Shown piece after piece: positions 1-420 of a DNA stretch of 420 nt (within the stretch, counting starts at the first letter, position 1; each line of letters begins with the position of its first letter). The stretch is from Escherichia coli. GTDB taxonomy: Bacteria > Pseudomonadota > Gammaproteobacteria > Enterobacterales > Enterobacteriaceae. Position numbers and translations under genes: made by a program. The DNA lies in the NCBI RefSeq assembly GCF_003334335.1, contig NZ_QOWQ01000192.1, one strand, 5' to 3'. The notes under the pieces were generated by a model, which searched no databases, was not told where the DNA came from, and was given only the letters and a program-made list of their open reading frames with translations.

Positions 1-137
1 ACAACGGATTTATCAGCAACGGAAATGGCCTGGAAGCTGTGGGAGCTTATGGGGGAGGTGTATTCGAACCGCTGGACCCAGAAGAACGGGGCCGCACCTT
101 CGAAGCTCTGGATTGCCCAGATTGGCGCGATGACTGA
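1..137 (+). CDS. 3' end (44 codons) of an upstream gene, 5'-partial; codon phase begins at nt 3, stop TGA 135-137. Product not recognised; by position ahead of a P-like loader it may be the replication initiator (lambda O-like), but that is inference from synteny only.
   Basis: Frame 3 is open from the window edge to TGA 135-137. Codons are mostly the common enteric ones (ctg, gaa, ccg, cgc, acc, ttc, ggc) and G-rich at first positions. The peptide is protein-like: a Gly-rich stretch followed by an acidic tail. The competing frame 2 is full of rare aga/agg/cga/cgg codons. Frame 1 over the same region has 4 Trp in 43 residues, all arising from frame-3 CTG-GAN or GTG-GGA pairs, which marks it as off-frame. 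Confidence 0.5.
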   Translation, partial: NGFISNGNGLEAVGAYGGGVFEPLDPEERGRTFEALDCPDWRDD

Positions 138-420
138 ACAGCAAATCCGGCTGGTCTGCCGTCAGTGCATGGACCGCTGCCGGGCGGGTGAAACGTGGCC
201 CCCGGACCTGGCTGAGTTTGTTGCGCTGATTTCGGAGAGTGGGGCAAATCCATTTGGTCTTACGGTGGATGCCGTGATGGAAGAGTACCGGCGCTGGCGC
301 AATGAATCCTGGCGATACGACGGGAGTGATAAATACCCGTGGCCTCAGCCTGTGCTGTACCACATCTGCCTCGAAATGCGTACCAGAGGGATTGAGCGCC
401 AGATGACGCAGGGTGAGTTA
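130..420 (+). CDS. Lambda P-family replication protein (DnaB helicase loader), 3'-partial; first 97 codons in window. Start ATG 130 is the preferred call, with an upstream start in the same frame as the alternative.
   Basis: Frame 1 is open to the window end. The translation matches recalled lambda P motifs in order: MTEQQ vs TMEQV, PPDLAEFVAL vs PSPGQFVAWC, VDAVMEEYRR vs VDMVYEYCRK, YDGSDKYPW..LYHI vs YPDAESYPW..HYWL, and TQGEL vs TDAEL. ATG 130-132 sits exactly where both other forward frames terminate (TGA 131-133 and TGA 135-137), typical of a coupled gene boundary. No clear Shine-Dalgarno precedes it. Confidence 0.75.
   Translation, partial: MTEQQIRLVCRQCMDRCRAGETWPPDLAEFVALISESGANPFGLTVDAVMEEYRRWRNESWRYDGSDKYPWPQPVLYHICLEMRTRGIERQMTQGEL

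Follow-up and report, generated by a model that had tools for sequence, protein, structure and literature searches.

A Gly-rich linker and acidic tail of a prophage replication initiator are encoded inside the gene for a lambda P-like helicase loader

In phage lambda, the replication initiator O binds the origin via its N-terminal half (PMC4488673), the N-terminal part of its partner P has been suggested to bind O (PMC4926192), and P itself comprises a disordered N-terminal 'lasso' and a domain II of residues ~30-119 (PMC12661323). The gene pair that we describe here, from an Escherichia coli prophage, resembles O/P in several respects: the initiator gene precedes the loader gene in a lambdoid early-right operon, the loader belongs to the Pfam family Phage_lambda_P, iteron-like repeats are located within the initiator gene, and the N-terminal part of the initiator is a putative origin-specific module followed by a C-terminal part that is the candidate loader contact. 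Moreover, lambda O ends in the short tip LDLTNTDWIYGVDL, which resembles the LDCPDWRDD end of the initiator studied here. The two systems differ, however, in that the O and P genes overlap by only 4 nt, as opposed to 209 nt out of frame here, in that our initiator carries a DnaT-type domain and not the Phage_rep_O domain of lambda O, and in the first ~90 residues of the loader, which are unlike those of lambda P.

The gene order is shared with the Rac prophage of E. coli K-12, in which, as here, a repressor gene, ydaS/ydaT-like genes, an initiator gene (ydaU) and a loader gene (ydaV) are followed by ydaW-like genes; YdaV is annotated as a putative ATP-binding protein, and we take this partner of YdaU to be a DnaC-like loader. 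K-12 YdaU diverges after ...QGLFAP and ends with ...SLPDSAIPPGFRG, without the helix, linker or acidic tail described below, and ydaV begins 7 nt downstream of ydaU with no overlap. Some alleles carrying the exact tail described here have a DUF1376 N-terminus like that of Rac YdaU. Our literature search found nothing relevant on a described overlap of initiator and loader genes or on the biochemistry of YdaU/YdaV.

Two features of the locus have known counterparts elsewhere. E. coli SSB, T7 gp2.5 and T4 gp32 are ssDNA-binding proteins in which a Gly-rich, disordered linker leads to a short end that is acidic and aromatic, and the tail described here is similar to theirs: AF2 gives a pLDDT below 50 at residues 304-345, and the protein ends with DCPDWRDD, as expected of an SSB-type tip. 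In contrast to those tails, it is not tied to an ssDNA-binding domain (10 of 27 bearers lack the DnaT domain), it has no hydrophobic IPF-like end, and its reading frame overlaps that of another gene. Long out-of-frame overlaps, in turn, are found in phiX174 (D/E and A/B) and in lambda (Rz/Rz1), where the constrained part of one protein is paired with a disordered, weakly constrained part of the other. The overlap that we report would likewise yield two proteins from one stretch of DNA, with constrained and disordered parts paired in the same way; unlike those overlaps, it joins an initiator to its loader, the two termini that it overprints being the likeliest sites of contact between the partners.

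The initiator and loader genes of a Rac-like prophage

The whole stretch of DNA analysed (420 nt, hereafter the window) matches, at 100% identity, positions 6001-6420 of a locus (L001) in a chromosomal prophage of E. coli JNEC-KY176. The gene order of L001 (repressor, HTH protein, YdaT-like protein, 345-aa initiator, 'replication protein P', then DUF1627 and others) is that of a lambdoid early-right operon, and the window falls within the replication module of an E. coli prophage of the Rac-like lambdoid type. Related sequence is present in 1253 of 5426 complete E. coli genomes, as well as in the Rac-SA53 and 'PPompW' prophage records. Two further relatives bear organism labels that look doubtful: the 'Actinobacillus phage vB_Apl-pPE4' record (L003, PP818812.1), with 91.6% nucleotide identity to the enterobacterial Rac-type module, and a 560-bp contig labelled Vibrio sinaloensis (L103), with 77% protein identity to it. 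An Rfam scan of the window returned no match at E<=1 and gave no sign of an RNA element. A minus-strand ORF of 116 aa (window 13-363) covers most of the window and is most simply viewed as a shadow of the coding strand. The features of the window are the following:

Window 1-420, plus strand: codons 25-164 of a lambda-P-like helicase-loader gene, frame 1 (open frame, Pfam, PHROG, Shine-Dalgarno sequence and ATG, conservation, AF2).
Window 3-137, plus strand: 3' end of a replication-initiator gene, frame 3 (translation, ORF list, RefSeq annotation, Pfam DnaT domain, PHROG replication-initiation families).
Window 15-62, plus strand: Gly-rich linker SNGNGLEAVGAYGGGV, initiator frame (6 Gly in 16 residues; Gly above the codon-permutation null; AF2 pLDDT below 50).
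Window 63-89, plus strand: acidic cluster A, FEPLDPEER, initiator frame (alignment, wobble G, dip in loader synonymous variation).
Window 108-134, plus strand: acidic, aromatic C-terminal tip LDCPDWRDD, initiator frame (stop positions, alignment, comparison with other tips).
Window 130-132, plus strand: loader start ATG of the RefSeq/PGAP annotation (153-aa model, L001 6130-6591), most likely the internal Met68.
Window 49-51, plus strand: ATG of Met41, the start in 180-aa annotations of relatives, probably internal too.

Frame 3 of the window translates as NGFISNGNGLEAVGAYGGGVFEPLDPEERGRTFEALDCPDWRDD and then meets a TGA stop at 135-137. Because this ORF reaches back to L001 5100 as an annotated CDS of 345 aa (L001 5100-6137), named 'DnaT-like ssDNA-binding domain-containing protein' in RefSeq, the peptide is the true C-terminus of a real upstream gene. 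That it might be an out-of-frame artefact, given that frame 1 is open and P-like, is ruled out by this full-length ORF with its DnaT domain (Pfam PF17948, residues 203-268, E=1.8e-16). The initiator also matches PHROG families of the 'replication initiation protein' and 'primosomal protein' types, and its score against the NCBIfam DnaT model NF002770 (93 bits) is below the equivalog cut-off of 201; by sequence, it is related to host DnaT, yet is not DnaT itself. The preliminary description of the window, which suggested that the tail of the upstream protein could recruit the loader, had left the family of that protein to a search of the full ORF, and this search places it among replication proteins. 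A Pfam search of the initiator gave no match to Phage_rep_O (PF04492); it may work like lambda O, but it does not belong to the lambda O family. Upstream of the window, the initiator gene holds two repeat clusters (L001 5228-5266 and 5509-5558), in which a 19-nt unit, itself a tandem GTCACGAC-type ~10-mer, recurs in register six times in all, with starts mostly 10 nt apart. These clusters resemble origin iterons, and lambda O likewise has such repeats within its gene.

The C-terminal part of the initiator consists of a helix, a linker and a tail. Residues 286-301 (L001 ~5950-6000, upstream of the window) form the conserved helix SRAVQEIRAAREQWER, which is encoded over loader codons ~8-24 and is common to most initiators preceding this loader subtype; it could be the actual loader contact, or act jointly with the tail. 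The gene does end, as the preliminary description had it, in a Gly-rich stretch followed by an acidic tail, and the peptide and the counts given there are exact: FEPLDPEERGRTFEALDCPDWRDD contains 9 acidic and 3 basic among its 24 residues. AF2 modelling of the initiator alone yielded a confident N-terminal domain (helix plus hairpin), a disordered linker and a confident DnaT-like domain, followed by the helix at pLDDT 56-73 and the tail (residues 304-345) at pLDDT below 50; the latter value supports the description of this segment as a flexible linker plus tail.

Frame 1 has no stop anywhere in the window, and upstream it stays open as far as an ATG at L001 5929. The resulting loader ORF of 220 aa (L001 5929-6591) extends beyond the window by 72 nt on the 5' side and 171 nt on the 3' side. 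Its residues 57-187 match Pfam Phage_lambda_P (PF06992, E=1.7e-15), and residues 14-220 match the PHROG family 'P-like helicase loader' (phrog_109, E=6.6e-63). In a phmmer comparison, residues 69-192 aligned with residues 81-202 of lambda P (8v9t chain V) at E=0.0026, a weak but collinear match. BLASTP aligned the loader from residue 17 or 27 to 220 with the 258-261-aa P proteins of phiV10-type phage and RothD, whose P genes overlap the initiator gene by only 4 nt.

The RefSeq model starts at Met68, which is Leu in 8 of 25 homologs and aligns with lambda P residue ~80, inside domain II; since loader residue 69 aligns with residue 81 of lambda P, the 153-aa model would cut into the equivalent of that domain. 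Many database entries for 'replication protein P' from several other genera are 180-181 aa long and start at Met41. However, W38, located upstream of Met41, is invariant, along with K52, N53, G54 and W61, in 25/25 non-redundant sequences, and the last base of its codon, which is the third position of a Val/Leu/Met codon in the initiator frame, is G in all 25; this indicates selection in the loader frame, so that Met41 is probably internal. In all 29 loci an ATG lies 43-53 codons upstream of the invariant KNG motif, preceded in nearly all of them, at about 4-10 nt, by a GGAGG/GAGGT-like Shine-Dalgarno sequence. Residues 34-67 are well conserved in an alignment of database homologs, which come from many genera and measure 180-223 aa. 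Collectively, these observations and the AF2 helices over residues 23-67 (see below) point to the 220-aa protein starting at L001 5929 as the real loader, rather than the 153-aa or 180-aa models. Its variable first ~30 residues would correspond to the N-terminal 'lasso' of lambda P (PMC12661323).

The same architecture and a similar under-annotation are seen in Vibrio phage D62 (L087), where a loader-like ORF at 1699-2358 is annotated only from 2032, as a 'hypothetical protein'; the homologous ORF from 1699 overlaps an O-like initiator gene by 212 nt. Degenerate copies occur as well, in Leclercia adecarboxylata (L105), with a frameshift at the start of the conserved region of the loader, and in Citrobacter sp. 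(L113), with a shortened loader ORF of which 129 codons are open.

Two-frame coding and selection on the tail

With the 220-aa loader, the initiator and loader genes overlap out of frame over L001 5929-6137, and window 3-137 codes in two frames. The preliminary description had placed the tail immediately before the loader; in fact it sits inside the loader gene, in the other frame, the loader starting 209 nt before the initiator stop. The tail is thus overprinted on the loader gene, and the overlapping part of the initiator frame corresponds to loader codons 2-70.

A search of viral contigs with the loader alignment gave only relatives of at least 92% identity, and genome contigs were used for divergence instead. 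These covered about 20 enterobacterial genera and, with two Vibrio phages added, made up a set of 25 non-redundant loci. Relative to the loader, the initiator ORF invariably occupies frame +2. Counted from the K of KNG, its stop is 20-80 nt downstream in 28 of the 29 loci, with +56 as the commonest position; the exception, with an early stop, is the Symbiopectobacterium copy. By sequence, the gene pair is dual-coding, with both ORFs kept in a fixed frame relationship across divergent lineages.

The Gly-rich, acidic tail is kept in homologs throughout these genera and in both Vibrio phages, and the conservation that the preliminary description had presupposed was therefore found. As there is no earlier stop in the initiator ORF, the tail is predicted to be translated. 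The linker SNGNGLEAVGAYGGGV overlaps the conserved AWxLWExMGE(V/I)Y of the loader. The FEPLDPEER cluster is kept in 24/25 loci and is lost only in Symbiopectobacterium (L006), where the initiator stops early, 14 nt after Met41, and hence lacks the entire tail. The LDCPDWRDD tip is not strictly conserved: its length differs among lineages with the position of the stop, W alternates with R, and it is missing in 5/25 loci (L006, L088, L109, L111, L112), three lineages being devoid of the whole tip and a fourth of its end, besides Symbiopectobacterium. The consensus of this tail type at the tip is (L/V/M)D-x-x-D-(W/R)-x-D-(D/E). Three Asp residues of the tail, D50, D62 and D69, are forced by W49, W61 and M68 of the loader.

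The two frames are not equally constrained along the overlap. In codons 41-69, loader codon positions 1/2/3 have nucleotide diversities of 0.34/0.27/0.54, versus 0.36/0.27/0.62 downstream of the overlap, and the third position of the initiator frame varies least; hence, the loader frame prevails in this part. The opposite holds for loader codons 2-32, where the initiator frame, encoding the helix SRAVQEIRAAREQWER, is dominant. Accordingly, loader synonymous sites reach only 0.56-0.67 of the expected variation in codons 2-26, as against 0.93 in codons 41-69 and a ratio near 1 elsewhere; within the tail overlap, the ratio dips to 0.82 at codons 46-54, which lie opposite FEPLDPEER. The mild reduction in the tail overlap (0.93) indicates selection on composition and openness of the initiator frame, not on a fixed sequence.

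Such selection was assessed by a null in which the loader protein and its codon usage were fixed, synonymous codons were permuted within each gene, and codons 41-69 were read in the initiator frame. Over the 25 loci, we counted 7 stops as compared with 31.1 ± 4.5 expected, 190 acidic residues versus 146, 58 basic residues versus 96, a net acidic charge of +132 versus +50 ± 10, and 94 Gly residues versus 65; the permutation P-values are approximate, since related sequences share ancestry and were treated as independent. When the set was thinned to below 62% identity (n=16), the deviation persisted (7 stops versus 21.1 ± 3.9; net charge +82 versus +28 ± 8). Five control windows downstream in the loader gene showed no comparable deviation, only an excess of stops just past the real stop. 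The wobble position contributes directly: before codons starting with A, wobble G was found in 65-66% of cases in the overlap as compared with 33-34% outside it (Fisher 2e-10 to 4e-15), whereas before other codons the values were 44-45% and 37-38%. Wobble G precedes loader codons N47, K52 and N53 in 19-20 of the 25 sequences, which creates Glu in the initiator frame, and K52 itself is AAG in 20/25 (elsewhere 101 AAG to 122 AAA), the AAG codon giving Glu, not Lys, in that frame. Given that the effect is large, specific to the overlap and survives thinning, we conclude that the tail is under selection and is not a by-product. A passive by-product of overprinting, which substitutions following the loader frame might suggest, is rejected by the codon-permutation tests.

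Initiator cores, C-terminal tips and loader subtypes

The initiators preceding this P subtype are diverse outside their C-terminus. The 29 loci include at least nine unrelated-looking types of N-terminal sequence, and among the 27 initiators that we aligned, Pfam recognised domains including HTH_36, DUF1376, DnaD_N, Phage_rep_O (in only one initiator) and DUF6291, while others had no match; the DnaT domain was found in only 17. An E. coli allele with a YdaU-like DUF1376 N-terminus has the same tail as the prophage described here. The sole segment common to the 27 proteins is the last ~65 aa, comprising the helix, the Gly-rich stretch and the acidic tail, and it coincides exactly with the portion that lies within the loader gene. 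A role of the tail limited to regulating the DnaT domain is made unlikely by the 10 tail-bearing initiators without that domain.

Co-inheritance of the tail with this P subtype follows automatically from the overlap and by itself cannot show an interaction. In systems with an overlap of 4-29 nt or none, the initiator tip tracks the N-terminal subtype of P, not the core domain of the initiator. The core NTDW(I/A)(Y/E)GV is common to lambda O (L120), phi80 gp15 (L121), HK639 gp54 (L124) and the DnaT-domain initiator of ZX5 (L123), all of which are partnered by P proteins with a lambda-like N-terminus; LD stands before the core in the first three, and ZX5 has ELDWNNTDWIEGV plus ten more residues after the motif. 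The initiators of phiV10-type phage, Tyrion, RothD and PdC23 (L089, L090, L091, L122), with DnaT, HTH or DUF4373 cores, are paired with a second P subtype and carry a PHWNS(P/R)E(A/G)W-type tip, e.g., PHWNSPEAWEDFL, finishing in EDFL, KDFI or EGVF. Judged by its residues, the Rac-type tip is a third variant, acidic and aromatic like the lambda-type and phiV10-type tips.

A candidate loader adaptor and competing explanations

Given this, along with the evidence for selection, we slightly favour the view that the tail is a disordered adaptor, encoded inside the loader gene, which contacts the loader or the loader-DnaB complex. The overlap itself falls into two parts. Loader codons 2-32 encode a disordered N-terminal segment, over which the initiator frame is dominant and gives the helix SRAVQEIRAAREQWER, while codons 33-70 encode the start of a folded domain matching domain II of lambda P, with the loader frame dominant and the initiator frame giving the linker and tail. 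The acidic residues other than the three forced Asp, the paucity of basic residues and the freedom from stops are kept by wobble G, and by avoidance of T, before codons starting with A. In the adaptor view, helix, linker and tail would together form the adaptor by which any upstream initiator contacts the loader or loader-DnaB, and this contact would, by analogy, mirror the engagement of P by the C-terminal part of lambda O. Structure prediction was also applied to a fusion of the last 85 initiator residues, a GS linker and the 220-aa loader, using a shallow paired alignment of 22 rows and pLDDT as the only readout. In this AF2 model, loader residues 23-67 formed helices at pLDDT 80-90 and residues 1-22 were disordered, whereas the tail gave no docking signal (pLDDT 34-43); the helix rose from pLDDT 56-73 alone to 75-89 in the fusion, a change that allows no interpretation from pLDDT without contacts. 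The proposal of the preliminary description, that the tail could recruit the loader, therefore stands in part: the initiator family, the conserved tail, the restriction of shared sequence to the last ~65 aa, the lack of the tail in K-12 YdaU with its DnaC-like partner, and the covariation of tips with P subtype speak for it, while the gene model on which it was based was wrong, the tip is only loosely conserved, loader synonymous variation is but mildly reduced opposite the tail, and the tail stays below pLDDT 50 in the fusion.

The main rival is that the tail works like the tips of SSB or T7 gp2.5, either as a DNA mimic masking the DNA-binding surface of the initiator itself or as a hook for partners such as DnaB, DnaK/DnaJ or SSB. 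We consider it rather unlikely, even though the layout (folded domain, disordered Gly-rich linker, acidic aromatic end) is the same and 17 of the 27 initiators have a DnaT-type ssDNA-binding domain, because the other 10 bear the tail without such a domain and the tips of non-overlapping systems track the P subtype, though all of these systems presumably use the same host DnaB. The finding that substitutions in the tail region follow the loader frame, together with the three forced Asp residues and the variable stop, which in one lineage falls 14 nt after Met41, might instead indicate a neutral by-product, in which the initiator ORF just continues through the loader gene as far as the first stop and takes its composition from conserved loader codons. 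Such a by-product, however, predicts about 31 stops and a net charge near +50, against the 7 and +132 seen in the overlap only, and it leaves unexplained why wobble G is doubled only before A-starting codons; we hence regard it as improbable.

The depletion of stops, as well as the position of the loader Shine-Dalgarno sequence and ATG inside the initiator coding sequence, would also be expected if the open frame served expression and not a peptide, i.e., if initiator ribosomes crossing the 5' region of the loader gene set its translation or the mRNA structure. This explanation leaves the surplus of acidic residues, the deficit of basic ones and the enrichment in Gly unaccounted for, and seems to us quite improbable; moreover, the initiator stop lies 209 nt past the loader start, and thus termination-reinitiation coupling cannot apply. 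A programmed +1 ribosomal frameshift producing an initiator-loader fusion, with the tail as the ending of the unshifted product, is hardly credible. It could be invoked because phrog_15931, with its 482 positions, aligns to the initiator over 1-347 and to the loader ORF over 279-482, and because fused proteins exist in the databases (P0032, P0106). Yet +1 ribosomal frameshifting is rare, the loader has its own conserved Shine-Dalgarno sequence and ATG, and the fused entries are single-member clusters; P0032 and P0106 are probably frameshifted or miscalled copies, and the frameshifted Leclercia copy shows that such copies occur.

Our results have consequences for annotation, since the loader is called as 153 or 180 aa in many RefSeq genomes, a systematic error in a module present in nearly a quarter of complete E. 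coli genomes, and the short models lose the first helices of the domain corresponding to domain II of lambda P. They also reveal that two partner genes of a replication module share a long and conserved stretch read in two frames, with a distinct selection signature in each; such overlaps are uncommon and usually dismissed as annotation artefacts. More tentatively, and with less confidence than in the adaptor itself, we speculate that P-family loaders are recruited by short acidic, aromatic initiator tips (LDxxNTDW in lambda, phi80 and relatives; PHWNSPEAWEDFL in the phiV10 type; LDCPDWRDD here), and that the Rac-type loader gene took the adaptor, together with the helix, into the second frame of its own 5' end. 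If so, both sides of the initiator-loader interface would lie in the same 209 bp, inseparable by recombination, and any origin-binding domain recombined upstream would automatically gain the matching docking peptide. The short C-terminal tips, including that of lambda O, are thereby candidate initiator-loader docking motifs. An adaptor written inside the loader gene would make origin-binding domains swappable by recombination, since the matching adaptor would always travel with the loader, and this offers a mechanism for the known mosaicism of lambdoid replication genes, in which origin-specific N-terminal domains would swap freely while the adaptor is carried by the loader gene.
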